Shown: in pieces, positions 1 through 46,733 of the stretch
Layout of the letters: every line of letters begins with the position of its first letter
Numbering within the stretch: the stretch's first letter is position 1
From: a virus
Direction: 5' to 3' (one strand)
Length of the DNA stretch: 46,733 nt
UHGV virus genome: UHGV-0157529
Notes under the pieces: generated by a model
The model's database searches: none
What the model saw: the letters and a program-made list of their open reading frames with translations, nothing else
What the model was told of the DNA's origin: nothing
Program-made: the position numbers and the translations under genes

Positions 1-612
1 CCAGCCTCGGACGACCGCCGATGGTCTGCCGCCATGCCGGGAGTGCGGGAGCAACGAGGCAGTGTACAGCCCGTCGCGGATAGCAAAAAAGGACTGGATA
101 TGCAACCAGTGCCTACGCAGACGCCATCGGGCAGCCAAAAAAGAGCGTATTCAACGGGGACAATAGCCGATGTCCAAAAACTCATCAGCGGCTGGGCCGA
201 CCGCACTTTCCCTGATCGAACCATCGGTGAAGCAATCCTCAAGCTTAAAAAGGAGCTGGCCGAGCTTGACACTGCTGGCTACCTTGACGCGGGGGAGTTT
301 GCGGATGTCGCCATACTACTGCTCGATATCGCCCAGCTTGCCGGAATCGACATCGCCACCGCAGTGGCAAACAAGATGACTATCAATGAACGCCGTGTGT
401 GGAAGCGCCTTGAAGACGGCACACATCAGCATGTTGTCGATGGGGGTCGTACTGACGGGGTTGACCCGATTATTAGACGAATCAGTCTTGGAGATGTGGA
501 CCCAGTCAACCACAACGTAGAATCCCATCTCTGTGTCGTCTGCGGACGCAGATTCCCTTCTGAAAGCAGCAGAGCAACCCATTACCAGAACGAACACGGG
601 AGAAAGAAATGA
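1..612 (+). CDS. MazG-like nucleoside triphosphate pyrophosphohydrolase domain protein with a C-terminal C2H2-like zinc finger. The reading frame is open from nt 1 (first in-window ATG at 34; SD-backed ATG at 100), so it is probably 5'-truncated by the window edge and continuous with the ORF at 46461-46733.
   Basis: Translation carries MazG-family motifs (WADRTFPDRT...AILKLKKELAELD...EFADVAILLLDIAQLAGIDIATAV...RRVWKRL). The C-terminus HLCVVCGRRFPSESSRATHYQNEH fits C-x2-C-x12-H-x4-H. No stop occurs between nt 1 and 33 in this frame. Its TGA overlaps the next start (ATGA at 609). Confidence 0.6.
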   Translation, partial: PASDDRRWSAAMPGVREQRGSVQPVADSKKGLDMQPVPTQTPSGSQKRAYSTGTIADVQKLISGWADRTFPDRTIGEAILKLKKELAELDTAGYLDAGEFADVAILLLDIAQLAGIDIATAVANKMTINERRVWKRLEDGTHQHVVDGGRTDGVDPIIRRISLGDVDPVNHNVESHLCVVCGRRFPSESSRATHYQNEHGRKK

Positions 613-1211
613 AGATGACCCCCCGCGACCTGATGCGCGCCCAATATGTGAATCGCTGGCAGATAGTGCCGACATCTCGACCGCAGAACGTAGCGCAGCA
701 CTCATGGGCGGTGGCTATGCTGGCCATGGACCTGTGGTGTCGCCGGACTGGTGGCCAACCCGGCGAGGCAGCCACCGATGTAGAGCTGGGCAGAATAGCT
801 GTTATGGCTCTGTGGCACGATGCCCCGGAGGTCTTCACAGGTGATATCAACACACCGACCAAGATTTATCTAGAAGCAGGCCGCCGACTGGCCAACCTTG
901 AGATGACCGCTGGCCGCGCCTATGTGAACGCTGTAGGCGCTGGCGACACCACGGACGACGAGCATGACTTGTTGGTCCGGGTGGTGAAGATTGCCGACTT
1001 CCTCGAAGCTATGTATTGGCTCATGGAACACGGCGAGGGCCACTACGCCAACGACCAGTTACATGGGCTAAATCAGCGTTTCAACGACTATCTGGAAAAA
1101 CACGCCCCCCTGTGGCGAAACGCAGCCTTGGAGCTATGGAAGGACTTAAGCGACGTGAACGCAGAAACAACCACCTTCCAGCGCGTAAACCGTTTGATGG
1201 CGGGAAGCTGA
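609..1211 (+). CDS. HD-domain phosphohydrolase, YfbR-like 5'-deoxynucleotidase family (DatZ-like dATP/dAMP hydrolase candidate)
   Basis: Motifs QNVAQHSWAVAMLAM and ALWHDAPEVFTGDINTPTKIY match the YfbR H...HD...D signature. It is translationally coupled to the upstream gene (ATGA) and the downstream gene (TGATG). Confidence 0.7.
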   Translation: MKMTPRDLMRAQYVNRWQIVPTSRPQNVAQHSWAVAMLAMDLWCRRTGGQPGEAATDVELGRIAVMALWHDAPEVFTGDINTPTKIYLEAGRRLANLEMTAGRAYVNAVGAGDTTDDEHDLLVRVVKIADFLEAMYWLMEHGEGHYANDQLHGLNQRFNDYLEKHAPLWRNAALELWKDLSDVNAETTTFQRVNRLMAGS

Positions 1212-1636
1212 TGAGAAAAGAAGAACAGAAGATGTGGGACCGCCTCCGCCCGAAGCTCCAAGCGCTCGGGGTGAGGTATGACCGGGTCGAGAGCCCGGCC
1301 ACCGCGCCCGACTTCCCGGACCTCGCTTACACGTGGGGTCGCCGTCACGGGTTCATCGAGCTAAAAGCCACGGAAATCGATGACAAGGGCCGTCTGGACC
1401 TGCGGCATTTCACCGCTGGTCAGCGGCGTTGGCTCCGCAACCGCGCCCCCGGTGGCGCTACGTGGCTCCTCATCAGGGTGTATGCCCCAGATGAGATGTG
1501 GATTGTGCTTAAGGGCACGCTCGCATTTGCAATCTCCGAGCGCCCGACCATGCTCGACCTCGAACCGTTTACCTATCTGACCCTTAATGGAGGAGTGACC
1601 CCCGAATGGCTCCGACAGTGGCTCTTGCAGGCATAG
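1211..1636 (+). CDS. hypothetical protein with a PD-(D/E)xK / VRR-NUC-like nuclease motif
   Basis: Start codon overlaps the upstream stop (TGATG). The sequence PDFPDLAYTWGRRHGFIELKATE resembles the D...E.K nuclease core. Third codon positions are GC-rich. Confidence 0.45.
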   Translation: MRKEEQKMWDRLRPKLQALGVRYDRVESPATAPDFPDLAYTWGRRHGFIELKATEIDDKGRLDLRHFTAGQRRWLRNRAPGGATWLLIRVYAPDEMWIVLKGTLAFAISERPTMLDLEPFTYLTLNGGVTPEWLRQWLLQA

Positions 1637-1939: not shown

Positions 1940-1968
1940 TTGACAAAGGGCCCCAACCATGTTATAAT
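1940..1968 (+). promoter_or_regulatory. sigma70-type promoter cassette P1 (TTGACA-17-TGtTATAAT), followed by a GC hairpin (1979-1996) and the GGAGATAGAGAGATG leader
   Basis: Perfect -35 and -10 hexamers with a 17-bp spacer and an extended TGn. The same cassette recurs at least 9 more times in the window. Confidence 0.75.
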
Positions 1969-28967: not shown

Positions 28968-29551
28968 TGCTGATAGCACATCTGTCGGAAGACGTGGCAT
29001 ATTACCTGTCCCAAGGACATGTGAATCTGGCTATAGCCGCCGAGTTCGAGTTCAATTCCGGCGTGTCCCGAGTGCACAGCGCTACCGGGGACATAGTGAT
29101 AGGCGGCGAGACGTTCACGGGGGCGGGCATGCTCGGGGACTGCTCCGCCGTATCGGAAGAAAACAACACATCCGACCAAGACATCACCCTCACCCTGTGT
29201 GGTCTGGACAACAACCTAATCAATATAGCACTCAATGAAAAGGTAATAGGTAAGAGAGTCACCCTATACATCGTGGTCTTCGATGACGAATACACCGCGC
29301 TGGCGTATAATGTGCTGTATGTGGGGAAAATAAGCCAGACGGCCATGATGGCTGGTTCCCAAGGCTCGATAGCCTATACCGCTGGGAACATTTTTCAAGA
29401 GTGGTCAAAAGGCAAGCCGTATCGCTATACGGACGAATCTCATGCTAAAATGTACCCTAATGATAGGATATTTAGGTATGGCGGCCAGATGTCGGACAGG
29501 TCGATATACTGGGGAAGCAAAAAAGACGCGCCGGGGTTCACATATTCATGA
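28967..29551 (+). CDS. minor tail protein (gpL-position)
   Basis: Position; ATGC overlap with the previous gene. Confidence 0.5.
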   Translation: MLIAHLSEDVAYYLSQGHVNLAIAAEFEFNSGVSRVHSATGDIVIGGETFTGAGMLGDCSAVSEENNTSDQDITLTLCGLDNNLINIALNEKVIGKRVTLYIVVFDDEYTALAYNVLYVGKISQTAMMAGSQGSIAYTAGNIFQEWSKGKPYRYTDESHAKMYPNDRIFRYGGQMSDRSIYWGSKKDAPGFTYS

Positions 29552-29952
29552 GACATATAGATTGGCAGGACAAGCTATTAAAGATAGCCATCGAACGCGA
29601 AAACACCCCCTTCCAGTGGGGGTCATATGACTGCTGCTTGTACGTGGCCGATACTATCGAGGCCATGACTGGCTTTGACCCAGCCGAATGGTTCCGTGGG
29701 AAGTACGACTCCGAAGAGGGGGCTATGGCCCTCATCGAGGAGAAGGGCGGGATGGTCGGGTACATGGATTCTCTGTTCAAGAGCAAGTCGGTGGAGTATG
29801 CGCAGCGCGGCGACGCGGTAGTAGTGGAAACGGACAACGGCCCCACCATGGGGATTATGTGGTCTGGCGGAGCCGTATGGATGCAAAGCGAGACAGGTGT
29901 TAAGCTATTCCCTCGTCTCAAAAAGAAGATAACCCACGTATGGGGGGTGTAA
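29548..29952 (+). CDS. NlpC/P60-like tail protein (gpK-position)
   Basis: FQWGSYDCCLYV resembles the NlpC/P60 Cys motif. Confidence 0.5.
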   Translation: MRHIDWQDKLLKIAIERENTPFQWGSYDCCLYVADTIEAMTGFDPAEWFRGKYDSEEGAMALIEEKGGMVGYMDSLFKSKSVEYAQRGDAVVVETDNGPTMGIMWSGGAVWMQSETGVKLFPRLKKKITHVWGV

Positions 29953-29953
29953 A

Positions 29954-32203: not shown

Positions 32204-32212
32204 GGATGATAT

Positions 32213-34441
32213 ATGACCGTCATAAGTGGTGTTTTAGTAAACGGGTTTGGCCAACCTATGGCCAACACCCAAATGAGGGCCGTGGCTGCCGAAACGGGAA
32301 CTGCTATTGTAGGGGCCCCCGCTTATGCCAGAACGGACAATAACGGGGCTTATTCTTTTCCCCTAGAAGTCGGTGTGTACTCATTTAGTATATGGTTTGG
32401 CCACCTAGAATGGCAGTATGTGGGGGACATACAGATATTAGAGGGGACCCCGGATTCATCACTCGACCAGCTTCTTGTGATATCTCCGAACACTAAGCCG
32501 ATGGTGCTGGCGAGAGTTTTACAAGCATTGCTGGATGCGGAGGCGGCGGCGGCGAATGCGGCGAATGCCGCCAATCAGGCCGCCGAAGAAGTTAGAGATT
32601 CCCTTACTCCTTTGGGTCTACAATACAAGGATGAGGCGTCAGCCCAAGCAGCCGTAACCGCTGGCGCTATCTCCGATGGGGCCTTTTTCTACGTGAGAAG
32701 TCAGGACAGCTACTCTTTGGCTGATGAGTACCGGAACGTTGGAGGAACGGTCAGCAAGACTGGTAGGCAGATTAACAGCAAGGAATACGTGACGCTAGTC
32801 CAAGAACAGGTGAAATCTGTGGACTCCCGCACAGACGGCCTTAAAACCGTGAAACTGGTAGACGATGTTCTGTTCTTTCTAGCGAAAAACGGGCCGGTTG
32901 TGAGCGTCGACAGTACAGGGCTAGTTCGGGCAATCGAACTAATCGTTCAGAAGCTGAAAGCGGATGATTTCGAGGTCCTGAACTTTCTAGCCACGATTAT
33001 CAAGGCGCAACAGCTTGAAATTGGTGGAAGCACATTATCATCCAGTGCGTTTCCCCTATCCGTAGATGCAAACAACGGCAGCGTTTTGGTTTTAGATGGA
33101 ACCGGTCGGCTGCTGGGTATCGAGCTGGACTTTGAGCAGATTAGGCTTAATGGCGTCGATATTCTGGACATCATTAACGGCCTGACGCCCGCTGAGGTTA
33201 AACGGCTCAAAATGAAGTTCATCACCGGATATAGCCACTTCGCGTTCTATGGGCAATCGCAGGTAATAGGGACCAGTAACGGGACCATCCATTCCACATC
33301 ATTTGACCCGGACAGCCTGATGCTATATGGCGGGTTAAAGTCGTTTGGTACACCGGGATATAACACCTCCGTGCCGGAGTCCGAATACAATAAAGCGCTG
33401 CGCCCAATGTATGAGGTAAACGGCGAGTCATATTGTTCAGGGATGGCCATCACCGCACGTCAATATATCAGTGGTAAGTACCCGAACCGTGATGTAAAAA
33501 ACATCTACACGGTCAACGGCACTGGTGGGTCAACTGTTGATATGCTCAAAAAGGGAACCTCGTCCTACAACCGAATGATTACGCAGCACGTCGCCCTCAT
33601 TAACCTACTAAGCAGCATGGGTGAGGCATACCACTTTCCTGCGTTTGGTTGGTCGCAAGGCGGTAGTGATGATAATGCTGGCACTAACCCCGATGTGTGG
33701 GAGGCAGCAGTAGACAAACTACGCGCGGACTACAACGCTGACATCTTCGCCCAGACAGGCGTGAAAATTGATCCGGCATGGATAACCAATCAAATCAACA
33801 ACTACATGCGTTACCCGGCTTTGAACGGAAAACCGAATATCGGTCTGCGTCAGTATAAGATGGTCACGAACGGTGAAGGAAAATACTTCGGCTCGTGTCC
33901 GACCTATATCTGTGACTTTATTGACGTCGCGCACTGGACAAAAGAGTCTCAGGTAAAGGTTGGGGCATATTTCGAAAAGACGCGGCGCTTCATTCTGGAA
34001 GAAGGGTACTGGGAGCCTGTACACCCTATCCGCATCACTACTGCAGGGAAATTCAGCACAGTGCAGTTTCATCTTCCGCAGAACCGTCCTCTGCAATTCA
34101 ACACCGTGTTCGTTGCCGAAGCCACGAACTACGGGTTCAGCGCCGCGCAAGCTGATGGTACACCTATCGCCATCGATCGCGTTCGACTCGTTTCCGACGA
34201 CACAATTGAGGTTCGATATACCGATGTCCCTCTACCGGGAGCGGTGCTGATGTATGGCCAGACAGGGCAAGTCGGTGATCCTAACGCGTCGGATGGCTCC
34301 GGGTTAGGCCGTACTAACGGTATGCGCGGAAATCTCTGTGATACAGCCGGAGACGACGAAAAGATTTATATTTCAGCTAGTGAACCCGAATATCCGCTGC
34401 ATAACTGGTGCTGGATGTTCACAGAAGACATGGGGGTATAA
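32213..34441 (+). CDS. tail fibre / tailspike protein with a possible SASA/SGNH-type carbohydrate esterase domain
   Basis: 742 aa. FAFYGQSQVIGTSNG resembles the GQSN motif of sialate-O-acetylesterase-like (SASA) domains. GC content is lower than in the neighbouring genes. Confidence 0.55.
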   Translation: MTVISGVLVNGFGQPMANTQMRAVAAETGTAIVGAPAYARTDNNGAYSFPLEVGVYSFSIWFGHLEWQYVGDIQILEGTPDSSLDQLLVISPNTKPMVLARVLQALLDAEAAAANAANAANQAAEEVRDSLTPLGLQYKDEASAQAAVTAGAISDGAFFYVRSQDSYSLADEYRNVGGTVSKTGRQINSKEYVTLVQEQVKSVDSRTDGLKTVKLVDDVLFFLAKNGPVVSVDSTGLVRAIELIVQKLKADDFEVLNFLATIIKAQQLEIGGSTLSSSAFPLSVDANNGSVLVLDGTGRLLGIELDFEQIRLNGVDILDIINGLTPAEVKRLKMKFITGYSHFAFYGQSQVIGTSNGTIHSTSFDPDSLMLYGGLKSFGTPGYNTSVPESEYNKALRPMYEVNGESYCSGMAITARQYISGKYPNRDVKNIYTVNGTGGSTVDMLKKGTSSYNRMITQHVALINLLSSMGEAYHFPAFGWSQGGSDDNAGTNPDVWEAAVDKLRADYNADIFAQTGVKIDPAWITNQINNYMRYPALNGKPNIGLRQYKMVTNGEGKYFGSCPTYICDFIDVAHWTKESQVKVGAYFEKTRRFILEEGYWEPVHPIRITTAGKFSTVQFHLPQNRPLQFNTVFVAEATNYGFSAAQADGTPIAIDRVRLVSDDTIEVRYTDVPLPGAVLMYGQTGQVGDPNASDGSGLGRTNGMRGNLCDTAGDDEKIYISASEPEYPLHNWCWMFTEDMGV

Positions 34442-35780: not shown

Positions 35781-37337
35781 GTGGAAGAGAAGAACATACT
35801 ACGATTCGCGCAGCTGTTTCGTGGGAACGAACGCTCATTCGGGCAGTTCACGCCCAACGCACCGAGTTCGCGCCACAGTATCACCGTGAAGGAGGCGTAC
35901 ACCTTCGATCATTACGTGAACCACCTCGACGGCAAGAAGGGCCTCGGTCTAGTGCCCATCATGGACGACGGATTCTGTTGGTTCGGGGCTATAGATATCG
36001 ACGCGCATGGTGACGCCGAGGATATCGACCTTATCGAGCTAGAGAGGCTGGTACGCGAACTCGACTACCCGTTGACTGTGTGCCGCTCCAAGTCAGGCGG
36101 TGCCCACCTCTACCTGTTCGGCAACGAGCCGCTCCGGGCGACTGTGGTGCGTAAGGTGCTGGCCAAATGGGCGGTGCAGCTAGGGCACGGCGGGTGCGAG
36201 ATATTCCCGAAGCAGGACGTGTTGCCCATCGAAAAGGACACGGGCGAGCAGCAACTAGGCAACTGGTTGAATTTGTGCTGGTTCGATGCCGAGAACCCCG
36301 AGTGTCTACGCTACACCGTGGAGGGCGGAAAGCAGGTAGACTTCGAGCATTTCCTCGATATCGCTGAATCACGCCGCATCACCCCGGCCATGCTGGTGGA
36401 GAAGGGCGACGGCGAGCATCAGGAGGCCCCGCCGTGCATCCAGCGCATGATAGCTGACGGCGTCGGCAAGGGCCACCGCAACGAAGCCATGTACAACATG
36501 GTCATCTACCTCAAACAGGCTTTCCCGGAGACCTACCGTGACCGGGCGTTCGACATGAATGGGCGTATCTTCACCGAGCCGATGAGCCACGCCGAAGCCA
36601 AAAAGGTCATCAACAGTGCCTCCCGTCGCGACTACCGATACAAGTGCAAGGAAGAACCCTGTAAGAGCCTGTGCCGCTCGTTCGAGTGCGTGACCCGTAA
36701 GTATGGCATCACACCGGAGGAGAAAGGCGAGCTTGAGATGGGTAAGCCGCCAGCGTTCGGACCACTGGAAAAGTACATGACCACGCCCGTGCGGTGGGTG
36801 CTGTACGTGGACGAGGTCCGGCTCAACCTGACCACCCAACAGCTGATGGACTTCAAGGCTATCCGTGAGGCCGTCGCCGACAACCTGACCCGCCTGATAC
36901 CGCCGATGAAGAACGATCGCTGGCAGGTGATATTGCATGGGCTTATGCAGGATGCCAAGTTAATCGAGGCTCCGGAGGAGGCCACACAGGAGGGCGCACT
37001 GTGGTCCCGACTGCAGAGCTTCCTTGCCAAGGCGGACCTCGATTCCAAGGGCGACGACCCCGAGGACCGCGACGCGCTCGCGTACGGGACACCAGTGGTG
37101 CAGATTAAGGACGACAGGCGTGTGGTCTACTTCCGTGGCCAAGACTTCCTCGAATACCTCAAGAAGAACCGCGCCGATGAGTTCAAGGGTTCGGCGGTAT
37201 GGGTGGCCCTCAAGCAGAAAGGGTGCGAGCACACCAAGCTACGCGTCAACAAGATGCCCCTCAATGTATGGTACGTGTCGGTCGATGACCTGACCCGTGT
37301 AGAGATTAAAGCTAAAGAAGTAAGGAGTGAATTCTGA
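35781..37337 (+). CDS. bifunctional primase-polymerase (AEP Prim-Pol domain plus PriCT-1 domain); GTG start
   Basis: IDIDAH and SKSGGAHLYLF match the AEP motifs, and GKGHRNEAMYNMVIYL matches PriCT-1. Confidence 0.8.
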   Translation: MEEKNILRFAQLFRGNERSFGQFTPNAPSSRHSITVKEAYTFDHYVNHLDGKKGLGLVPIMDDGFCWFGAIDIDAHGDAEDIDLIELERLVRELDYPLTVCRSKSGGAHLYLFGNEPLRATVVRKVLAKWAVQLGHGGCEIFPKQDVLPIEKDTGEQQLGNWLNLCWFDAENPECLRYTVEGGKQVDFEHFLDIAESRRITPAMLVEKGDGEHQEAPPCIQRMIADGVGKGHRNEAMYNMVIYLKQAFPETYRDRAFDMNGRIFTEPMSHAEAKKVINSASRRDYRYKCKEEPCKSLCRSFECVTRKYGITPEEKGELEMGKPPAFGPLEKYMTTPVRWVLYVDEVRLNLTTQQLMDFKAIREAVADNLTRLIPPMKNDRWQVILHGLMQDAKLIEAPEEATQEGALWSRLQSFLAKADLDSKGDDPEDRDALAYGTPVVQIKDDRRVVYFRGQDFLEYLKKNRADEFKGSAVWVALKQKGCEHTKLRVNKMPLNVWYVSVDDLTRVEIKAKEVRSEF

Positions 37338-39172
37338 TGTGGGACTTCGCCGTCAAACCGCGCCCCGGTGCGTACATGAATGTAACGATGAACGATAACA
37401 CCGGACGCATGCATATCGAGGCGTCCATCTCGTATAACGACCTAATCCGGGCTTTCCCTAACCGCAAGTTCGAGAAACGCCGCAGCATATGGGTAGTACC
37501 CATTATCCGCCGCAACGCCGAACACTTGCTCAACAACTGCAAGGGAAAGCCGGGCGTCAACATCGCCGAGGATGTAGAGGACCACTGCCGTCAGGTCATC
37601 GAGTCGGCCACCATCACCCGCCGTGAGGTGCTGCCTACGTGGTATGAGTTCAAAACAGAGCCGTTCCCGTTCCAGCGCGACGCGCTCGATTTCGCGTGGT
37701 CATCGCCGCTGGTGGCGTTCTTCATGGAGATGGGGACCGGGAAGTCCAAGACCCTCATCGACCTCGCCTGCGCCAGATTCAAGGCCCGGCTCATTAACGC
37801 CCTCATAGTCTACTGCCCGGTGCCGCTCCGGTCCAACTGGGTGGCCGAATTCGGCATCCATGGCTCGGTCCCGTATGAGACGTTCGTCTGCGACACGACC
37901 ATGAGCGGCTTCGAGAAGAAGGTAAAGGCGTTCAACGACGCTGACTTTGGGTATAACAAGCTTAAGGTATTCATCGTCGGCATCGAGTCATTCAGTCAGG
38001 GCATGAGTAAGGGCAAGGCGTTCGGGGCCACCATGCAATTTGCCCGATCGCATCAGGCCATGCAAGCGGTGGATGAATCCCACAAGATTAAAGGCCACGA
38101 CGCATCACGTGCTATCAACGTCGAGGTGCTGGGCCGCGAGGCCAAGTATAAGGCCATCATGTCCGGGTCTCCGGTGTCGCTAGGGCCCACCGACCTATAT
38201 CAGCAGTTCCAGTTCCTTTCCCCGGACATCATCGGTCTAGGCGACTTCTATAGTTTCCAAGCCCGGTATTGTGAGAAGGGCGGGTTCCAGAACAAGCAGA
38301 CGGTAGGGTATCAGAACATCGATGAGCTGATGGAGATAATTAAGCCGTTCGTGTTCCAAGTCAAGAAGGAAGACGTATTGACCGACCTCCCGGCCAAGAT
38401 GTTCACCAAGGTAGAGGTAGAACTTACCAAGGAGCAGAAGGACTTATACGCCCAAATCAAGAAAGAGCGCTGCGCCGACCTATCAAAACTGCTGGCCTCC
38501 CGCAACGGGGCCATTACTGAGTCGTTCATCGAGCTGGTCTGCGAGAATGTGCTGGCCGCATATACCGCCCTGCAGCAGATTTGTGCCGGGTATGTGTCCT
38601 ATTGGGAGCTTGACGACCCGGAGGACGAGAACAGCAAGCGTCACCGTGAGCGAGTGCGTGTCATCGAGCCCGAGAAGAACCCGAAGATTGCCTATCTGCT
38701 GGAGTTCATCGAGGAGAACAAGGGCCACCCGCTTATCATCTGGGCCAAGTTCCGCCCGGAGATAGCCGACATCGTGGAGGCGCTCACTGCCCGGTACGGG
38801 GAGGACATGGTCTGCCAGTATCACGGGGGTCTCAACCCGGCGGAGCGAGACGAGCAAAAGGCCAAGTTCCTCAACACCGATGCCCAGTTCTTTGTCTCCA
38901 ACCAGCAGACCGGGGGCACGGGCCTGACCCTGAACAAGGCAAGCCGCACGTTCTATATGTCTAACAGTTTCATTCTGGTGGACCGTATGCAGTCGGAAGA
39001 CCGAAACCACCGAATCGGCCAGAAAAACTCCGTTCTGTATGCTGATGTGGTGGCCAAGGGTACGGTAGACGAGACCATCCTGCAAGCCATCCGCGATAAG
39101 AAGGACCTCGCGGCATATGTGCGGGATTGTATGGAGCGCTCCCCTGCTGAACTGTTGGCGCTGTTGGGATAG
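37337..39172 (+). CDS. SF2 helicase (SNF2/DEAD-DEAH box family)
   Basis: MEMGTGKSKT (motif I), DESHKIK (motif II) and QSEDRNHRIGQ (motif VI). Confidence 0.8.
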   Translation: MWDFAVKPRPGAYMNVTMNDNTGRMHIEASISYNDLIRAFPNRKFEKRRSIWVVPIIRRNAEHLLNNCKGKPGVNIAEDVEDHCRQVIESATITRREVLPTWYEFKTEPFPFQRDALDFAWSSPLVAFFMEMGTGKSKTLIDLACARFKARLINALIVYCPVPLRSNWVAEFGIHGSVPYETFVCDTTMSGFEKKVKAFNDADFGYNKLKVFIVGIESFSQGMSKGKAFGATMQFARSHQAMQAVDESHKIKGHDASRAINVEVLGREAKYKAIMSGSPVSLGPTDLYQQFQFLSPDIIGLGDFYSFQARYCEKGGFQNKQTVGYQNIDELMEIIKPFVFQVKKEDVLTDLPAKMFTKVEVELTKEQKDLYAQIKKERCADLSKLLASRNGAITESFIELVCENVLAAYTALQQICAGYVSYWELDDPEDENSKRHRERVRVIEPEKNPKIAYLLEFIEENKGHPLIIWAKFRPEIADIVEALTARYGEDMVCQYHGGLNPAERDEQKAKFLNTDAQFFVSNQQTGGTGLTLNKASRTFYMSNSFILVDRMQSEDRNHRIGQKNSVLYADVVAKGTVDETILQAIRDKKDLAAYVRDCMERSPAELLALLG

Positions 39173-39198
39173 ACAACGGGGGCCCGGTGTGATATACT
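39170..39198 (+). promoter_or_regulatory. promoter cassette P10 (TAGACA-17-TGaTATACT). The -10 is bracketed by the GGGCCC...GGGCCC palindrome (39182-39205); leader CAGGAGATAAGAGATG.
   Basis: Same architecture as P5. Confidence 0.55.
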
Positions 39199-39225
39199 GG
39201 GCCCCTACAATACAGGAGATAAGAG

Positions 39226-39603
39226 ATGACCGATAAACAGCCTAAAGTTTTCGTCGTACAGGAAAACCCGAACCTCAACTACACACCTGCTGAGCGCTAC
39301 GGCGAGGTTGTTTTTCTGACAGCCATCGAATTCAGCCCGATGAAGAACAGCCCACGCAACGCGGCAGTGCTGGAGACCGTCGAGGCGGCAATGAAGCGTT
39401 TCGACCCGAGCAAGGACTACCTCCTGCTGTCGGGCAACCCTATCATCATGGGTTATGTGTTCCACCTCGCCATGACCAAGGCCACAGAGGTCCGTGTGCT
39501 GTGGTGGTCCCGCGATGACCGCAAATACACCGAGGTCCTGTTCAACCCGGACTTCATCAAATCGGTCGGTATCCCGGCCATCCCCGTGACATACAAAAAG
39601 TGA
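39226..39603 (+). CDS. hypothetical protein
   Basis: First gene downstream of P10. Confidence 0.55.
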   Translation: MTDKQPKVFVVQENPNLNYTPAERYGEVVFLTAIEFSPMKNSPRNAAVLETVEAAMKRFDPSKDYLLLSGNPIIMGYVFHLAMTKATEVRVLWWSRDDRKYTEVLFNPDFIKSVGIPAIPVTYKK

Positions 39604-39611
39604 GATTAGAG

Positions 39612-40142
39612 ATGACAGAGCAAACCGTAGATAGAGCAGCGCCAGCGGATAACAGCGTACTGGCCCAGATTGGCCGCACCTCCGAGCAGCTACGCCAGCT
39701 ATGCGAAATGTATCAGGTCGACGCGGTGGCGGACAAGATGCGTACCGCCGACCTCAAGACGCTGGCCATGATTCACCAGAACCTCAATGAACTGACAGAC
39801 CACATCGACGAAAGCCGCAAGATGCTGTCCAAGACATATGACTGGCTGCGTCACAGCCTTATGATTGACAAGATGGATGAGGCCGGACTCGAAGCATTCA
39901 GCGTTCCGGGCGTCGGTCGCGTCTACATCCAGTCAAGTCTGAACGCCTCGATTAAGGCCGGGGCGAAAGACGGCGCATATCTGTGGCTGCAGGACCACGG
40001 CCACGGAGACTTGATTCAGGAGACGGTCAATTCATCCAGTCTCAAGGCTCTGGCCAGAACCAAGCTGGCGGATAACGACCCGCTCCCGGCTGAGCTGTTC
40101 AACGTGTCGCCCAAGCAGTTCGCCGTCATCCAGAAGAAGTGA
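39612..40142 (+). CDS. hypothetical protein
   Basis: Preceded by GTGAGATTAGAGATG. Confidence 0.5.
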   Translation: MTEQTVDRAAPADNSVLAQIGRTSEQLRQLCEMYQVDAVADKMRTADLKTLAMIHQNLNELTDHIDESRKMLSKTYDWLRHSLMIDKMDEAGLEAFSVPGVGRVYIQSSLNASIKAGAKDGAYLWLQDHGHGDLIQETVNSSSLKALARTKLADNDPLPAELFNVSPKQFAVIQKK

Positions 40143-40164
40143 CCCGTTGGGGCAAAAGGCAATA

Positions 40165-40193
40165 TTGTACGCCCGGCCCTGATATGATAGAAT
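40165..40193 (+). promoter_or_regulatory. promoter cassette P12 (TTGTAC-17-TGaTAGAAT) plus hairpin GGCGGGGTGGTCCCGCC; the leader shares AACAGAGCAACC with P1
   Basis: A diverged copy of the P1 cassette. Confidence 0.5.
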
Positions 40194-40251
40194 GAAGTTT
40201 CTGGCGGGGTGGTCCCGCCGACAACCAACAGAGCAACCAGAGGATTTAATC

Positions 40252-40524
40252 ATGGAAAAAGCTACCAAACTGACCATCGTACTGCAGCCGACCAACGTCG
40301 AAGCGTTCAAAAACCGCTCTATCGCTGATTCCGGCGTGCTGGAACTGGCGGCTAAGGTCGTCGAAGCTGGTCAGGAGCATGGCTTTGGCACTGCGTCCGC
40401 ACCGACCATCTTTAAGGTGAACGGTGAGAAGGTGAAAGCGTACACCAATAAAGGCGGCGATGTCACTGTGGCGCTGACTGGCATTCACGCCGAGCCGCCG
40501 AAAAACGCGCCGATCGAGCTGTAA
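40252..40524 (+). CDS. hypothetical protein
   Basis: GAGG SD; 91 aa. Confidence 0.5.
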   Translation: MEKATKLTIVLQPTNVEAFKNRSIADSGVLELAAKVVEAGQEHGFGTASAPTIFKVNGEKVKAYTNKGGDVTVALTGIHAEPPKNAPIEL

Positions 40525-40623
40525 TGCTGGTGGGGGCCTTGTAGGGGCCCCCTAAAAATACCCTACTAGAATCGTGAATCAAGAACCACCCCCCGTGCAA
40601 TCGCACTAATCAATAGATGAGAG

Positions 40624-41394
40624 ATGAACAACATGGCTAAGAAAGATACCGCAGTAGCTACCACCGCAGGTTTCGACGTATCTACCCTGTCCGCAGGTGC
40701 TGTTCCTGACTTCCTTAAGGACAAGATGGGCGAAGGTCGCGGCAACGAAGGCGTATCCTCCGATGACATGACAGTGCCGCGCCTCGAACTGGTGCAGTCC
40801 CTGTCCGAAGTCCGCAAAAAGGCATCCCCGAATTATATCGAAGGCATCCAAGAGGGTGACCTCTACAACAACGTGACTCGCGAAGTGTACGGCGAATCGG
40901 TGTTGTTCGTCCCGGTGACGTTTGTCAAGGAATACCTGCTGTGGCGCGACCAGAAGCAGGGCGGCGGTTTCGGCGGCTCCTTTGCGACCGCAGAAGAAGC
41001 CGAAGGCGTACGCTCCACCATGGAGAAGCCGGAAGAGTGGGAAGTGGTGGACACCCCGCAGCACTTCGGTCTTATCATCTCCGAGTCCACTGGCCAAATC
41101 ACCGAAGCTGTGGTATCCATGGCCAAGTCCAAGGCCCGTGTCTCGCGCAAGTTCAACAGCCTCGTGCGCCTGAACGGAGGCGACCGTTTCTCTCGCATCT
41201 ACCGCATCCGTGGCGTGAGCGACCAGAACAAGGCCGGGCAGGACTTCTTTAACCTCGCCATCGACCCGGTGGCATTCGTCAACGAAGCGCTCTATCGCCG
41301 TGCTGAGAAGTTCTACGACCTGCTGATGTCTGGTAAGGTGGTGGCTGACCGCACGTTCGATGGTGAGACCGTCGAAGACAGCGAAGACATGTAA
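40624..41394 (+). CDS. putative ssDNA-binding / annealing protein with an acidic C-terminus (alternative start at 40634)
   Basis: Preceded by the GAGAGATG leader variant. The C-terminus is DGETVEDSEDM. Confidence 0.35.
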   Translation: MNNMAKKDTAVATTAGFDVSTLSAGAVPDFLKDKMGEGRGNEGVSSDDMTVPRLELVQSLSEVRKKASPNYIEGIQEGDLYNNVTREVYGESVLFVPVTFVKEYLLWRDQKQGGGFGGSFATAEEAEGVRSTMEKPEEWEVVDTPQHFGLIISESTGQITEAVVSMAKSKARVSRKFNSLVRLNGGDRFSRIYRIRGVSDQNKAGQDFFNLAIDPVAFVNEALYRRAEKFYDLLMSGKVVADRTFDGETVEDSEDM

Positions 41395-41464: not shown

Positions 41465-42940
41465 ATGAACCAATACGTAGCTATCTACGGACCTCCGGGT
41501 ACAGGTAAATCCACCGAGGTTATCCGCCGCTTCTCCAAACTCCTCGACGACGGCGTGGACCCGAACCGCATCGGGTTGGTTTCATTCACCAAGGCCGCAG
41601 CCAAAGAGCTGGCCAACCGCATCGGCATCGACACCCCCAACATCGCCACCATCCACAGCTACTGCTACCGACTTCTGGGCCTGACCAAGCAACAGGTCAT
41701 CGGCTGGTCACACATGAAAGAGTTCGAGAAGGTGGTGGGCATCGAAATCCGTGGCGACAACCCGGACGAAGAGGAAGAACTCTGCGAGGGTGACATCTAC
41801 CTGACCCTGTACGGACTCGCGCATGCTCGTATGACCTCATACGAGGATACCTACGATAACTCGGACCAGCCCGGCTCCCGTGACCGCTTCATCTATTTCG
41901 CACAAACCTATGACAACTGGAAAAACGCATATGGCTACGTTGACTTCTCGGATATGCTTGGCGGCGCTCTTGACGTCCCTGCTCCTCGGCTCGATTGGCT
42001 GTTCGTCGACGAAGCCCAAGACCTCTCCCCTCTACAATGGGCGGTTATTAGACATTGGTCGGGAGCTATTAACAACATCACCATCGCTGGCGACGATGAC
42101 CAAGCCATCTACGTATGGGGCGGGGCGGACCCGGACGGTATGTATCGTTTCGAGCAGGAGTATGGGGCCGAGCGCGTCGTACTCGGACAAAGTTATCGAG
42201 TGCCGCAACTAGCGCACAAGCTGGCCGAGCGTGTCATCACTCTGGTGTCATCACGTGTCGACAAAGAGTACCTGCCGCGTGACGAGGTCGGGGATATCCG
42301 CCACCACAGCGGCCCGCACTCGCTGCGGCTTGAGCACGGTGTCGACACTCTGGTGTTATACCGCAGCCACTATATGCGCAGAGAGGTTGAAGACTACCTC
42401 ATCCAGCGCAAAATCCCGTATGTCACCGATTCGGGCCGTCCGGGCCTAATGCAGGGGACCATCGCCGCCTCGTTGCGCCTCATGAAAAAGATGCGGGAGA
42501 ACATCGAGCACCTCGGCAAGCCAGCCCTGACCGACGCCGAGTTCCGCATCCTGCGCCGGAATATGACCCATCTGGCCATCGCCCACGTGGACGCGGAGAA
42601 GTGGGATAAGCTGGTGGAGCGCCGACCGTGGGACCATCTCAAGCTTGGCGGACCGTGGCTGGCCTATCTGCAAGCCATCGAGAAGAACTACGGTATGGAA
42701 GTCAAGCCGACCATCCACCTGTCCACCATCCATGGCTCAAAAGGCCGACAGGCCGAGCGGGTAGTGTTAATTAACGATGTTAGTGCTAAGACCGCCAGCA
42801 ACATGGATAACCGCGACGGCTTCGATGCCGAGATGCGTACCTTCTATGTTGGCGTCACCCGTACCAAGAACATGCTGGACATCGTCCACGGGGACAACGC
42901 CCTGCCTGTGCTGATGAAGCCCGTACATAAGGACAAATAA
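41465..42940 (+). CDS. UvrD/Rep-family SF1 DNA helicase
   Basis: GPPGTGKST (Walker A), DEAQDLSPLQ (motif II) and the UvrD-like C-terminal motifs. A 5' UTR hairpin with a GAAA tetraloop lies at 41426-41443. Confidence 0.8.
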   Translation: MNQYVAIYGPPGTGKSTEVIRRFSKLLDDGVDPNRIGLVSFTKAAAKELANRIGIDTPNIATIHSYCYRLLGLTKQQVIGWSHMKEFEKVVGIEIRGDNPDEEEELCEGDIYLTLYGLAHARMTSYEDTYDNSDQPGSRDRFIYFAQTYDNWKNAYGYVDFSDMLGGALDVPAPRLDWLFVDEAQDLSPLQWAVIRHWSGAINNITIAGDDDQAIYVWGGADPDGMYRFEQEYGAERVVLGQSYRVPQLAHKLAERVITLVSSRVDKEYLPRDEVGDIRHHSGPHSLRLEHGVDTLVLYRSHYMRREVEDYLIQRKIPYVTDSGRPGLMQGTIAASLRLMKKMRENIEHLGKPALTDAEFRILRRNMTHLAIAHVDAEKWDKLVERRPWDHLKLGGPWLAYLQAIEKNYGMEVKPTIHLSTIHGSKGRQAERVVLINDVSAKTASNMDNRDGFDAEMRTFYVGVTRTKNMLDIVHGDNALPVLMKPVHKDK

Positions 42941-42942
42941 CG

Positions 42943-44820
42943 ATGGCTATCTTTCCGAGATTAGAAAACTACGATGTGGTGGCTATCGATACCGAGACCA
43001 CCGGACTGGACTGGTTCCGTGGGGATAAGCCGTTCGGTGTAGCTATCGCCCTGCCTAATGGGTACAGTGAATATTACGATATCCGTAAGGACCTCGCTGC
43101 ATACCAGTGGCTCCGTGACTCGGTGCATAAGATTCGCCGCCCGGTAAACCACAACATGAAGTTCGATATCCACATGTTGCGTCAGGTGGACGTGATGGTC
43201 AACACCCGTAAGGCTGAGTGTACCCAAATCCGCGCGGCCCTCATCAACGAGCATCTGATGAGCTACAGCCTCGACGCTCTGGCCAAGAAATACCTCAAGG
43301 CCGAGAAGGTCGACGACATCTATGAGGAGCTGGCCAAGCTGTTCGGCGGCCCGGCCACTCGTAAGGCCCAAGCCCCGAACTTCCATCGTGCGCCCGAGTC
43401 CATGATGCGCCGCTATGCCAAGGTCGATGCCGAGTTAGCCCTGCAGCTATGGCAGTGGCAGGAGGAGGAAATCGCCCGTCAGGACCTCGGCGAGGTGTGG
43501 CGTCTTGAGATGCGCCTGCAGCCGCATGTCATCGAGTCAGAACGCGTAGGCATCAGGGTAGACGAGGAGCTGGCGAAGAAGCGTATCAGCGACCTCACCA
43601 AAATCGTGGACCAGACCAGAAAGGAAATCAACCGACTGGCTGGATTCGAGGTCAACCCAAACCCATCGGGGTCCATCAAAAAGCTGTTCGAGCCGTACAA
43701 AGAGGGTGATCAGTGGTATGCCAAGGATGGGACCCCAATCGACACGACCGACGCCGGACAGCCGTCGCTGGGGGCCGATGCCCTCAAGCGCATCAAGCAC
43801 CCAGCAGCTGGCCTTATTCTTAAGTGCCGCAAGATGATAAAGACCCGTGATACCTTTATCTCTGGCCACGTGTTGGGTAATATCGTAAATGGGTACGTGC
43901 ACCCGAACATCAACCAGACCAAGGGCGAGGTAGGCGGGGACAATTCCGGGACCGAGGGTACTGGCACTGGCCGCCTGTCGTATACACGCCCGGCCTTACA
44001 GCAAATCCCGTCACGCGACAAGGAGGTGGCAGCGCTGGTGCGGCCAATCTTCCTGCCCGATGAGGGCCAGCTGTGGACCTACGGCGACCTCGACCAGCAC
44101 GAATTCAGGATATTCGCCCACTACGCGAACCCGAAGAGCCTAATCGAAGCGTACGCCGCAAATCCGGACCTCGACATGCACCAAATCGTGGCCGACATGA
44201 CTGGGATGCCGCGCTCGGCCCCGGCATCGGGCGGTGCGAACGCCAAGCAAATCAACCTCGCTATGGTGTTTAACATGGGCGGTGGTGAGCTGGCGTCCCA
44301 AATGGGCCTCCCATATACATGGGAATCCGCAGTGTTCAAGGACGAGAACGAGGAGCGCCGATTCAAGAAGGCCGGAGAAGAGGCACTCGCGGTCATGGAG
44401 ACTTACTACCGGGCAGTACCGGGTGTGCGTGAGGTGGCTCGCCGGGCCGGGTCGCTGGCGAAGTCCCGAGGATACGTGAAGACCATGTACGGGCGCAAGA
44501 TACGCTTCCCCGGCGGCAAATTCACGTACAAGGCGTCCGGTCTGGTGTATCAGGGTACGGCTGCCGACTTCAACAAGCGCAACATCTGCGAGATAGCGGA
44601 GTATATCGAGTCCGAGTGCCCGCATAACCGCTTCCTCCTCAACATCCACGACGAATATAGTATGTCGATGATGGATGAGGGCGACATCACAGTGAAGCAC
44701 CTGCGCGAGATGAAGCGATTAGTGCAGGACAAGGGTCTGCGGGTCCCTATCCGCATCGACTTTGGGGGACTGGCCCCGAATTGGTGGGAAGCGACCAAGA
44801 TGGACGTCATCACCAAATGA
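42943..44820 (+). CDS. family A DNA polymerase with a 3'-5' exonuclease domain (DpoZ candidate if the genome carries Z-base)
   Basis: Exo I motif AIDTETTGL, motif A DLDQHEFRIFAHY, motif B ANAKQINLAMVFNMGGG, motif C NIHDE. Confidence 0.85.
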   Translation: MAIFPRLENYDVVAIDTETTGLDWFRGDKPFGVAIALPNGYSEYYDIRKDLAAYQWLRDSVHKIRRPVNHNMKFDIHMLRQVDVMVNTRKAECTQIRAALINEHLMSYSLDALAKKYLKAEKVDDIYEELAKLFGGPATRKAQAPNFHRAPESMMRRYAKVDAELALQLWQWQEEEIARQDLGEVWRLEMRLQPHVIESERVGIRVDEELAKKRISDLTKIVDQTRKEINRLAGFEVNPNPSGSIKKLFEPYKEGDQWYAKDGTPIDTTDAGQPSLGADALKRIKHPAAGLILKCRKMIKTRDTFISGHVLGNIVNGYVHPNINQTKGEVGGDNSGTEGTGTGRLSYTRPALQQIPSRDKEVAALVRPIFLPDEGQLWTYGDLDQHEFRIFAHYANPKSLIEAYAANPDLDMHQIVADMTGMPRSAPASGGANAKQINLAMVFNMGGGELASQMGLPYTWESAVFKDENEERRFKKAGEEALAVMETYYRAVPGVREVARRAGSLAKSRGYVKTMYGRKIRFPGGKFTYKASGLVYQGTAADFNKRNICEIAEYIESECPHNRFLLNIHDEYSMSMMDEGDITVKHLREMKRLVQDKGLRVPIRIDFGGLAPNWWEATKMDVITK

Positions 44821-44834
44821 GCAAAAAGGGCCCC

Positions 44835-44864
44835 TTGACCGGGGCCCCAACCGTATGGTATACT
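44835..44864 (+). promoter_or_regulatory. promoter cassette P13 (TTGACC-18-TGgTATACT). The -35 sits in the loop of the GGGCCCC...GGGGCCC palindrome (44828-44847); leader GGAGATAGAGAGATG.
   Basis: Read directly from the sequence. Confidence 0.55.
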
Positions 44865-44896
44865 ATTCCTTTACAGCACGAACCGGAGATAGAGAG

Positions 44897-45223
44897 ATGG
44901 CACAGTACGACAACACCAACCGTGGCGCGTTGTTTATCAACGACCGTAAGACGCCGGGCAGCAAGCAGCCCGACTACAAAGGCAGCATCAACATCGAAGG
45001 CGTCGAGTACTGGGTGTCCGGTTGGGTGAGAGACACGACACGCGGCGAAATCGTATCGATGTCAGTCGAGAGGAAAGAAGGAGGCCCGTCCCGTCCGCAG
45101 CAATCAGCCCCACGGGCCCAAGGCCCTCGCACACTCGGTGGCCACCGCAACCCGACCCCGAACGGCACAAGTCAGGCCCAGAGCGAGCCGCCGATGGACT
45201 TTGACGATGACATCCCATTCTGA
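44897..45223 (+). CDS. small SSB-like protein ending in the canonical SSB C-terminal tail DDDIPF
   Basis: The C-terminus MDFDDDIPF is identical to the gammaproteobacterial SSB tip; the rest is a Gly/Pro-rich disordered linker. Confidence 0.5.
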   Translation: MAQYDNTNRGALFINDRKTPGSKQPDYKGSINIEGVEYWVSGWVRDTTRGEIVSMSVERKEGGPSRPQQSAPRAQGPRTLGGHRNPTPNGTSQAQSEPPMDFDDDIPF

Positions 45224-45275
45224 GAGCGTCACCTATTCAGTAAACCGTACCTTTAATTAACGCAGGAGCAACACC

Positions 45276-46448
45276 ATGAAAGACATTAAGAGCAACCGCC
45301 CGGTAGTAACAGCACCGAAAGCAACCATCGTCGTTGACGCCCAGTTCGGCAGCACCGGTAAGGGCCTCATCGCTGGGTATCTGGCAGAACGCGACCAGCC
45401 CGATGTAGTGATGACCGCATGGAGCGCAAACGCTGGCCACACCTACATCGATGCGAATGGCCGTAAATTCGTGCATTGCATGCTGGCCAACGGCATCGTA
45501 TCGCCGAATCTCGAAACCGTCCTCATCGGGCCGGGGTCACAGATGGATTGGTCGCTGCTGCTGCGCGAAATCGAGTCCTGCGCAGACCTGCTGGCGGGTA
45601 AGAGCATTTTTGTCCACATGAACGCGGCTATTATCACTGATGCCCATCGTGCCGAAGAGCAGGGCCCGATGACCAAAATCGGTTCGACCAAGAAAGGCTG
45701 TGGTGCGGCCATGATTGCCAAAATCCGCCGCAACCCGGATGACCAGAACACAGCGGGGGCGATGCGCTCTGACCTGCTGGCCGAATGGCGCAAGATGCAA
45801 TGTGCTAACCCAGACCTGCAGGTCGTGGAACTGGGTATTGTATCAAACGCCGAATACCTAGATATGGTCTACCGCGCCCGCCGCATTCAGGTAGAAGGCG
45901 CACAGGGTTTCAGCCTCGGCATCAACAACGGCTTTTATCCGTATGTGACCTCTCGTGAGTGCACCCCCGCGCAGGTCTGCGTAGACGTGAACCTGCCGCT
46001 GGCCTTCGTGGATAAAGTAGTAGCCACCATGCGTACCTACCCAATCCGCGTAGCCAACCGCTACAACGACAAGGGCGAGCAAATCGGCTGGTCCGGCCCG
46101 TGCTACCCTGACCAGAAAGAGCTGGACTGGAAGGCCGACCTCGGAATGGAAGCAGAGCTTACTACCGTGACCAAGCTCCCGCGTCGCATCTTTACGTTCT
46201 CCTACGAGCAGACCAAGGCTGCGCTGAGCGTCATCCGTCCGGACGAGGTGTTCCTCAACTTCTGCAACTATATGGAACCGGACGAAGTGGCTGAGGTGGT
46301 GGGCACCATCGAGCGTGCAGCGCATGAGCTGAAAATCCCCGGCCCTATGCCACTGGCCCGTTACTACGGCTATGGCCCGACTGTGACTGATATCTACACC
46401 GAAATGCAGGTACAAGAGCCTGAATTCGGCGGCAACATCAGCGAATAA
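45276..46448 (+). CDS. purZ: adenylosuccinate synthetase-family enzyme with Asp replaced by Ser in the P-loop; candidate PurZ (N6-succino-2-amino-2'-deoxyadenylate synthase)
   Basis: FGSTGKG aligns with PurA QWGDEGKGK (Asp to Ser). SANAGHT aligns with GGHNAGHT. 390 aa, a short archaeal-like PurA length. Flanked by PolA, MazG and HD genes. Confidence 0.6.
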   Translation: MKDIKSNRPVVTAPKATIVVDAQFGSTGKGLIAGYLAERDQPDVVMTAWSANAGHTYIDANGRKFVHCMLANGIVSPNLETVLIGPGSQMDWSLLLREIESCADLLAGKSIFVHMNAAIITDAHRAEEQGPMTKIGSTKKGCGAAMIAKIRRNPDDQNTAGAMRSDLLAEWRKMQCANPDLQVVELGIVSNAEYLDMVYRARRIQVEGAQGFSLGINNGFYPYVTSRECTPAQVCVDVNLPLAFVDKVVATMRTYPIRVANRYNDKGEQIGWSGPCYPDQKELDWKADLGMEAELTTVTKLPRRIFTFSYEQTKAALSVIRPDEVFLNFCNYMEPDEVAEVVGTIERAAHELKIPGPMPLARYYGYGPTVTDIYTEMQVQEPEFGGNISE

Positions 46449-46460
46449 GGGGAAGGGGCC

Positions 46461-46733
46461 ATGACCGGAATCAAGTTTGACCAAGGCAAGGCCCCGCTTA
46501 GTCTGATTGACCCGCGTTTCACCGAGGAGGTGGCGCGGGTTCTGGCTATCGGGGAACAGAAATACGGACGAGCGAACTGGCAAGGACTCAAAGTGGAGCG
46601 CCTGCTAGACGCCGTAAAAAGACACACACTTGAATTAGAGAAGAGCAACGACCATGACGACGAAACTGGACTCCACCACGCAGCACACGCCGCCTCCGGA
46701 CTTATGTTCATCTTCTGGCTCCTCAACAACCGA
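46461..46733 (+). CDS. dATP/dGTP diphosphohydrolase N-terminal-domain protein, 3'-partial. The ORF runs off the window end in frame with the ORF entering at nt 1.
   Basis: KFDQGKAPLSLIDPRFTEEVARVLAIGEQKYGRANW...GLHHAAHAASGLMF resembles the dGTP_diPhyd_N family. There is no stop before the window end. 273 nt equals 91 complete codons. Confidence 0.55.
   Translation, partial: MTGIKFDQGKAPLSLIDPRFTEEVARVLAIGEQKYGRANWQGLKVERLLDAVKRHTLELEKSNDHDDETGLHHAAHAASGLMFIFWLLNNR

Follow-up and report, generated by a model that had tools for sequence, protein, structure and literature searches.

Few genomes in nature depart from the ATGC alphabet, and those in which adenine is replaced by 2-aminoadenine (Z) are among them; the replacement gives phages resistance to restriction and is used in synthetic biology. 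The closest described system is that of Salmonella phage PMBT28, a virulent pac-type siphovirus (PMC6025938). Its purZ, mazZ and datZ genes yielded 19–20% deoxy-2-aminoadenine (dZ) in Escherichia coli plasmids, a value that rose to 29–44% when dpoZ was added and higher still with the helicase and ssb genes (PMC12944874; bioRxiv 10.1101/2025.10.22.683976). Acinetobacter phage SH-Ab 15497 is also a reported Z phage, for which MazZ and DpoZ have been biochemically characterised, and more distant systems are known from the Vibrio podovirus phiVC8 and the cyanophage S-2L. Here we analyse UHGV virus genome UHGV-0157529, a 46,733-nucleotide stretch of uncultivated phage DNA (the window), which carries a gene set of this kind.

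A co-oriented module that crosses the junction between the two ends of the window encodes a UvrD-type helicase, DpoZ, SSB, PurZ, a DUF5664–DUF550 (MazZ-1) pyrophosphohydrolase and DatZ. The same order, including the small open reading frame (ORF) that follows datZ, is found in SH-Ab 15497 and PMBT28. We consider it highly probable (about 93%) that the window is the complete, circularly permuted genome of a siphophage with a Z-genome module of the PMBT28/SH-Ab 15497 type. The genes are present and intact in this order, they belong to the expected families and their catalytic and specificity residues are conserved. The cluster type has been characterised before, as it is orthologous to the experimentally validated PMBT28 set and is annotated in relatives in GenBank, among them K21lambda1, whose cluster is almost the same and has PurZ and DatZ labelled. 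A preliminary description of the same DNA had proposed a candidate Z-base cluster, and every component that it proposed was positive when compared with the defining features of Z-genome families. Because the established Z gene set is present, virion DNA is expected to be ZTGC-DNA that many host restriction enzymes would fail to cut.

The window is a circular siphophage contig of 46.7 kb with a G+C content of 56.3% and every long ORF on the + strand. Megablast recovered four collinear phage genomes (VLCpiS6a, vB_Kpn_K21lambda1, 'Pseudomonas' phage PSA28 and PMBT28) at 82–94% identity over most of the length. The nearest are the Klebsiella phages vB_Kpn_K21lambda1 (OY978848) and VLCpiS6a (ON602731), with 87–94% nucleotide identity; both are too dissimilar to the window to reach the 95% identity normally used to define a species, and its tail-spike region is unmatched. 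PMBT28 differs more: its DNA is ~82–85% identical, and the match is interrupted among the early genes and in the tail region. Collinearity with K21lambda1 extends over the junction, where window positions 42943–46733 correspond to positions 29435–33236 of its record and window position 1 to position 33237. As this match passes straight through the window ends, the two ends adjoin each other, and the genome is either circular or permuted circularly. An 885-nucleotide coding sequence in K21lambda1 spans the equivalent position, the exact joined 294-residue product is present in ENA/Logan metagenome assemblies together with exact PurZ, DatZ and DpoZ proteins, and an independent ENA scaffold (46,788 bp) is 100% identical across the junction over 7,173 bp with the mazZ-like gene unbroken. 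Collinear relatives and support for the junction thus identify the window as a complete uncultivated genome of the PMBT28-like group.

These data bear out the preliminary description where it joined 46461–46733 to 1–612; the ORF runs off the 3' end and continues in frame there. The other ORFs that it named, for the polymerase, SSB-like protein, adenylosuccinate-synthetase paralogue and HD hydrolase, are likewise present on the + strand (Table 1). The span that it gave for the cluster, 45276–46733, takes in PurZ and stops 91 codons into the MazZ-like fusion.

Gene order and domain architecture in PMBT28 are as in the window, including a DUF5664–DUF550–C2H2 fusion, and protein identities are 88% for the helicase, 93% for DpoZ, 84% for SSB, 83% for PurZ, 88% for MazZ and 78% for DatZ. 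As annotated, the N terminus of the window PurZ is 23 residues longer than that of PMBT28, and DatZ has 200 residues compared with 194. Identities to K21lambda1 are 97% for PurZ, 99% for DpoZ, 100% for the small nuclease-like ORF, 89% for MazZ and 77% for DatZ. SH-Ab 15497 has the identical order at lower identity (PurZ, 62%; DpoZ, 64%). Compared with the distant systems, its polymerase is of the phiVC8 type, its DUF550 domain is MazZ-1 as in S-2L and its DatZ specificity residues are kept, whereas the annotation of the phiVC8 cluster lists no gene of the DUF550 type and S-2L has a PrimPol in place of DpoZ and a stand-alone MazZ of 105 residues. Gene labels among the relatives of the window are inconsistent. 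K21lambda1 annotates PurZ and a 'dATP triphosphohydrolase' and labels the MazZ fusion 'unknown function', PurZ is called 'adenylosuccinate synthetase' in several records, and in VLCpiS6a the match coincides with an 'endolysin' label, probably derived from PHROG families 2252 and 5033, both of which include DUF5664.

PurZ, DpoZ and MazZ

Pfam reports only the general family PF00709 for the protein encoded at 45276–46448, and more specific tests of PurZ versus PurA were therefore applied. The PurZ-specific NCBIfam model NF038379 scored 397.6 bits against a cut-off of 300, whereas the PurA equivalog models all fell below their cut-offs (140 versus 368, 114 versus 396, 98 versus 402, 82 versus 445 and 46 versus 700). 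The best matches in the PDB were the PurZ structures of phiVC8 (6FM1; E = 4e-83) and S-2L (7ODX; E = 1.5e-78), with weaker matches to archaeal PurA (E = 1e-25), PurZ0 (7VF6; E = 4.5e-16) and E. coli PurA (E = 1.5e-15). The protein also matched phrog_1211 (E = 8.8e-99).

We aligned the window protein with those of K21lambda1, PMBT28, SH-Ab 15497, phiVC8, S-2L and Bm1, three PurZ0 proteins and E. coli PurA, and mapped ligand-contact residues from the S-2L structure (PMC8342488). The P-loop reads QFGSTGKG in the window and QWGDEGKGK in E. coli PurA, and S26 aligns with D13 of PurA and S23 of S-2L. This confirms the replacement of Asp13 by Ser on which the preliminary description had based its paralogue; among phage PurZ sequences, Ser is reported at this position without exception (100%; PMC12884076). 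Contacts to dGMP, its deoxyribose and the Asp loop are kept at N52, A53, T138, R152, Q210, R258-V259, T296–T299 and R303, for which the reference residues are N49, A50, T132, R146, Q190, R240-V241 plus an insertion, T273–T276 and R280; G136-S137, next to T138, and Y223/T225 are conserved as well. The PurZ-specific loop insertion, ANRYNDKGEQIGW, follows R258-V259, and the tip of the Asp loop (296–299) is TTVT rather than the GATT of PurA. At the position of PurA R303, which contacts the ribose 2'-OH, the window protein has L301. An adenine-donor pocket of the phiVC8 type is present (N328, F329, N331, G367 and P368; references N305, F306, Q308/N297, G335 and P336), and the segment with which PurA binds guanine (K331/D333) is deleted, its columns being gaps. 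The PurZ proteins of phiVC8 and S-2L are 49–50% identical to that of the window, and all ligand contacts are kept. PurZ0 proteins differ in having a GSEAKG P-loop and other donor-pocket residues.

A neighbour-joining tree of this small sampling of 11 sequences (300 bootstraps) placed the window protein inside the PurZ clade with 100% support, apart from PurZ0 and PurA. Within that clade it branched with K21lambda1, then PMBT28, then SH-Ab 15497, the sister lineage, and this group again received 100% support. Phylogeny and the 2'-OH contact, which the preliminary description had set as its test between PurZ and PurA, both went for PurZ, in agreement with the model scores, structure matches and ligand residues.

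The polymerase scored 929.5 bits with the DpoZ model NF038380 (phage_DpoZ_1; cut-off 500) and 182 with the PolA equivalog (cut-off 720), and it matched phiVC8 DpoZ (7PBK) at E = 8.6e-158 versus 1.9e-41 for Klenow. It shows the signature features of DpoZ (PMC8599892): insertions 1–3 are present, insertion 1 being 7 residues longer; L439 and G533 correspond to phiVC8 L455 and G548; and in helix E2, R140 and A144 correspond to R161 and M165 (M/I/A). In Klenow, the residues aligned with L439, G533 and R140 are F, N and N, and A144 falls opposite a gap. The exonuclease residues D16 and E18 (phiVC8 D26/E28) are intact. The closely similar PMBT28 protein carries the UniProt recommended name DNA polymerase DpoZ (DPOZ_BPPMB). 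Curated model, structure match, insertions and signature residues all support the earlier suggestion that this family-A polymerase with exonuclease is DpoZ. It would prefer dZTP over dATP, as judged from the phiVC8 and SH-Ab 15497 enzymes and from the ability of PMBT28 DpoZ to raise dZ. The neighbouring SSB-like protein, which had also been suggested before, has no Pfam match and belongs to the SSB family phrog_18154. The helicase completes the replication part of the module; co-expression of its PMBT28 counterpart raised dZ incorporation (PMC12944874; bioRxiv 10.1101/2025.10.22.683976).

The joined 294-residue protein contains PF18909 (DUF5664, 'dATP/dGTP diphosphohydrolase N-terminal'; E = 9.1e-25) and PF04447 (DUF550; E = 2.4e-8), both above gathering thresholds (87.0 bits versus 27 and 34.5 bits versus 23), and a weak C-terminal C2H2 match. 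The tandem pair is found in all 60-odd homologues. The protein had been described as a MazG fusion: it is a (d)NTP pyrophosphohydrolase fusion, as proposed, with an architecture of DUF5664, DUF550 of the MazZ-1 type and a C2H2 finger instead. It matched the dATP/dGTP pyrophosphohydrolase family phrog_801 (E = 3e-70), and its DUF550 part matched the S-2L MazZ structure 7ODY (E = 8.5e-15). The S-2L metal ligands E35, E38, E50 and D53 are kept as E176, E179, E190 and D193, the transition-state residue R83 as R223 and the guanine selectors I56 and D60 as I196 and D200. The positions that differ (E34, I16, N20 and A92) are exactly those published as S-2L-specific or variable. The metal and guanine-specificity residues thus support the MazZ-like assignment, and the type is MazZ-1, which the literature tells apart from MazZ-2 (PMC12884076).

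DatZ, the extent of substitution and other readings

By analogy with characterised orthologues, the module would work as follows. The DUF5664–DUF550 fusion would strip pyrophosphate from dGTP, and probably from dATP too, to give dGMP. PurZ would join dGMP and aspartate, with ATP or dATP, to form N6-succino-2-amino-2'-deoxyadenylate (dSMP), as suggested by the PMBT28 enzyme, which is 83% identical and active in vivo. Host PurB and host kinases would complete dZTP. DatZ would hydrolyse dATP to dA and triphosphate, so that A could not compete, and DpoZ, with the adjoining helicase and SSB, would prefer Z opposite T and copy the genome as ZTGC-DNA. Among ORFs of at least 120 codons in the non-structural arm, none had a PurB, kinase, dUTPase or NDT domain; the lack of the first two agrees with reliance on host enzymes in the later steps to dZTP.

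The datZ start codon overlaps the mazZ stop codon (ATGA). The protein matched Pfam YfbR-like (E = 3.3e-19) and HD domains and the dATP triphosphohydrolase family phrog_7076 (E = 3.3e-55), and it scored 57.6 with the NCBIfam YfbR model (cut-off 122). Residues assigned function in a published DatZ study (PMC8065100) are conserved: R19, K81 and K116, which bind the triphosphate, are R16, K85 and K127 in the window; W20, which excludes ribose, is W17; I22, which excludes the purine 2-amino group, is I19; and P79, which stacks on the base, is P83. The HD metal ligands H31, H70-D71 and D130 are kept, and D79 is also conserved. These residues agree with the preliminary description, which had read the YfbR-type HD protein as a DatZ-like dATP remover.

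Several observations count against the reading as a Z-genome module. The PDB scores of DatZ are nearly equal for E. coli YfbR (E = 4e-11) and S-2L DatZ (6ZPA; E = 7e-11), so the score alone does not decide the assignment; taken together, the specificity residues, the PHROG family and the context point to DatZ rather than YfbR. DatZ is also a divergent 200-residue allele, 77–78% identical to the proteins of K21lambda1 and PMBT28, with a 7-residue insertion. The sequence of the MazZ fusion is compatible with action on dGTP only or on dGTP plus dATP; the SH-Ab 15497 fusion is reported to hydrolyse both, and a stand-alone DUF5664 acts on dATP, dGTP and dUTP (PMC12884076). More generally, we infer the activities of the module enzymes from their orthologues and the Z content of virion DNA from the gene set, as sequencing reads report Z as A.

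Partial substitution, or one inactive component with the divergent DatZ as the candidate, would leave virion DNA with a mixture of A and Z. DatZ is the least conserved member of the module, at 77% identity to K21lambda1 versus 89–100% for the neighbouring genes. The divergence lies at residues ~86–180, with the insertion in the TTDDEHD region. Moreover, PMBT28 genes give only 19–53% substitution in E. coli plasmids. Against this, the metal, phosphate and base-specificity residues of DatZ are all intact, and the 200-residue allele occurs on many near-complete phage contigs and is hence maintained. The shortfall in plasmids reflects competition with host replication, unlike phage infection, and related phages are described as fully substituted in the literature (PMC12884076, PMC8599892). 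We therefore regard mixed virion DNA as improbable. Two DatZ alleles, of 200 and 194 residues, both circulate in the PMBT28-like group, which, together with a divergence beyond that of the neighbours, suggests recombination or faster evolution.

An ordinary PurA that the phage carries as an auxiliary metabolic enzyme to increase the supply of AMP, beside hydrolases with generic roles in nucleotide house-cleaning, would agree with the general Pfam assignment and with the presence of catalytic residues common to PurA and PurZ (K29, H55, Q210 and R303). The sequence rules this out at Asp13, the GTP-specificity segment, the R303 contact and the equivalog score alike; the altered Asp loop, the adenine pocket that replaces the guanine segment, the far weaker match to E. 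coli PurA than to PurZ and the fully supported split in the tree point the same way. Equally implausible is the alternative PurZ0 pathway of the Wayne/Ghobes type, in which DutZ and DmtZ control the pool: PurZ0 also has Ser for Asp13 and shares the superclade (PMC12884076), but the window protein has a PurZ-type P-loop, matches the PurZ0 structure only weakly and lies in the PurZ subclade (both subclades received 100% support), its partners DatZ and DUF5664–DUF550 are typical of PurZ phages, and the scanned ORFs have no dUTPase (PF00692) or NDT (PF05014) domain, which excludes this route. The PMBT28-type Z-genome module remains the reading that accounts for the cluster.

A C-terminal zinc finger of the MazZ-like protein

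The conserved C2H2 finger on the C terminus of MazZ is the only novelty in the cluster, and a minor one. It has the sequence LCVVCGRRFPSESSRATHYQNEH (residues 267–290, approximately nucleotides 526–597) and follows the pattern C-x2-C-x3-F-x8-H-x4-H. The ligands are the same in all 15 of 15 close cluster members, and neither they (Cys and His) nor the Phe changes in homologues as distant as 48% identity; in Kokobel2-like proteins the spacer is slightly longer. An AlphaFold2 model of the fusion, built from 21 homologues (mean predicted local distance difference test score (pLDDT) of 70; predicted template modelling score of 0.36), has three confident modules separated by disordered linkers. These are the helical DUF5664 domain (residues 10–95; pLDDT ~80–93), a MazZ-like helical domain with two terminal beta-strands (146–237) and the finger segment (267–293; pLDDT 82–87), which is predicted to fold as beta-beta-alpha.

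The finger is found in the enterobacterial PMBT28/K21lambda1/Kokobel2 branch. It is missing from S-2L MazZ and from the SH-Ab 15497 fusion, a protein of 385 residues that has a different, unrelated C-terminal domain of ~130 residues in its place, as in the Acinetobacter branch. We did not find a description of a MazZ C2H2 finger in the literature; keyword matches for MazZ and zinc finger were noise from author names. A eukaryote-style beta-beta-alpha finger on a metabolic enzyme of a bacterial virus would be unusual in itself. We speculate, as a rather unlikely idea, that it may tether the dGTP/dATP pyrophosphohydrolase to DNA or to the replisome, so that pool editing (supply of dGMP and removal of dATP) would take place at the fork; if so, substrates would be channelled locally for Z-DNA synthesis at the replication fork.

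Neighbouring genes and the PMBT28-like group

The features of the module and its flanks are collected in Table 1.

Table 1. Coordinates of the Z module and adjoining features in the window.
Feature	Coordinates	Strand	Basis or remark
UvrD/PcrA-type helicase	41465..42940	+	Pfam UvrD-helicase (E = 1.5e-30) and UvrD_C; first gene of the replication/Z module
DpoZ, phiVC8-like family-A polymerase with 3'-5' exonuclease	42943..44820	+	NF038380, 7PBK, signature residues
Promoter-like site TTGACC-18-TATACT, TG extended, in the dpoZ-ssb gap	44835..44864	+	Consensus match only
SSB	44897..45223	+	phrog_18154 (E = 2.7e-36)
PurZ, succino-2-amino-deoxyadenylate synthase	45276..46448	+	NF038379, 6FM1/7ODX, residues, tree
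mazZ-like fusion, 5' part: DUF5664 (dGTP_diPhyd_N), residues 1-91	46461..46733	+	PF18909
mazZ-like fusion, 3' part: linker, DUF550/MazZ-1, second linker, C2H2 finger	1..612	+	PF04447, 7ODY
DatZ, HD-domain dATP triphosphohydrolase	609..1211	+	YfbR-like Pfam, phrog_7076, residues
Small PD-(D/E)XK-like protein adjoining datZ	1211..1636	+	Motif alignment, phrog_2165
Sigma-70 consensus TTGACA-17-TATAAT, TG extended, at the start of the next gene block	1940..1968	+	12/12 pattern match only

The 141-residue ORF that adjoins datZ gave no match in PDB and Pfam searches. In the alignment it keeps a motif of the PD-(D/E)XK type (E27, P36-D37 and E50-x-K52), and the label 'DNA helicase' that PHROGs (phrog_2165) and GenBank give it looks like a misnomer. 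Homologues occupy the position after datZ in PMBT28, SH-Ab 15497, phiVC8 (p23) and Burkholderia phage Bm1. We rejected the ORF as a Z-specific companion, despite its adjacency to datZ in five distant PurZ phages. tblastn placed homologues beside dCMP deaminase in Yua/M6-like Pseudomonas, Bordetella and Stenotrophomonas phages, in which no PurZ hit was seen, and the ORF thus travels with nucleotide-metabolism modules generally, beyond Z clusters.

Scans for promoters and terminators gave consensus matches only, with no enrichment over shuffled sequences, and the operon boundaries that they suggest are tentative. The perfect sigma-70 consensus lies in the intergenic gap after the ORF at 1606–1935; if the genome is truly Z-substituted, the injected template would show Z for A in its hexamers. 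Just downstream, the 296-residue protein encoded at 2022–2912 (+) has a C2H2-like motif (FKCDRCETEF...H....H; weak Pfam zf-C2H2_6) and a zinc-ribbon-like motif (CPECG...CKAC). The replication arm that precedes the Z module (35781–41394, +) codes for a primase of the AEP type (PF22548), a helicase of the SNF2 family and three members of families known from cyanophage Pam3 (gp32, gp33 and gp34; PF23992, PF23984 and PF23977).

The same phage genome is present in at least two public metagenome assemblies, ERZ505748 (NODE_182, 46,860 bp) and ERZ28624227 (scaffold_179, 46,788 bp). Clusters of PurZ, MazZ and DpoZ at 90% identity have 57–120 members, many on contigs of 45–47 kb. With dozens of cluster members on near-complete contigs, PMBT28-like Z phages are common in sequenced samples and mostly unannotated. 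The window adds one more uncultivated member to this enterobacterial PMBT28-like group and opens no new question, and the finger of its MazZ and the two DatZ alleles offer small leads for engineering dZ production in E. coli.

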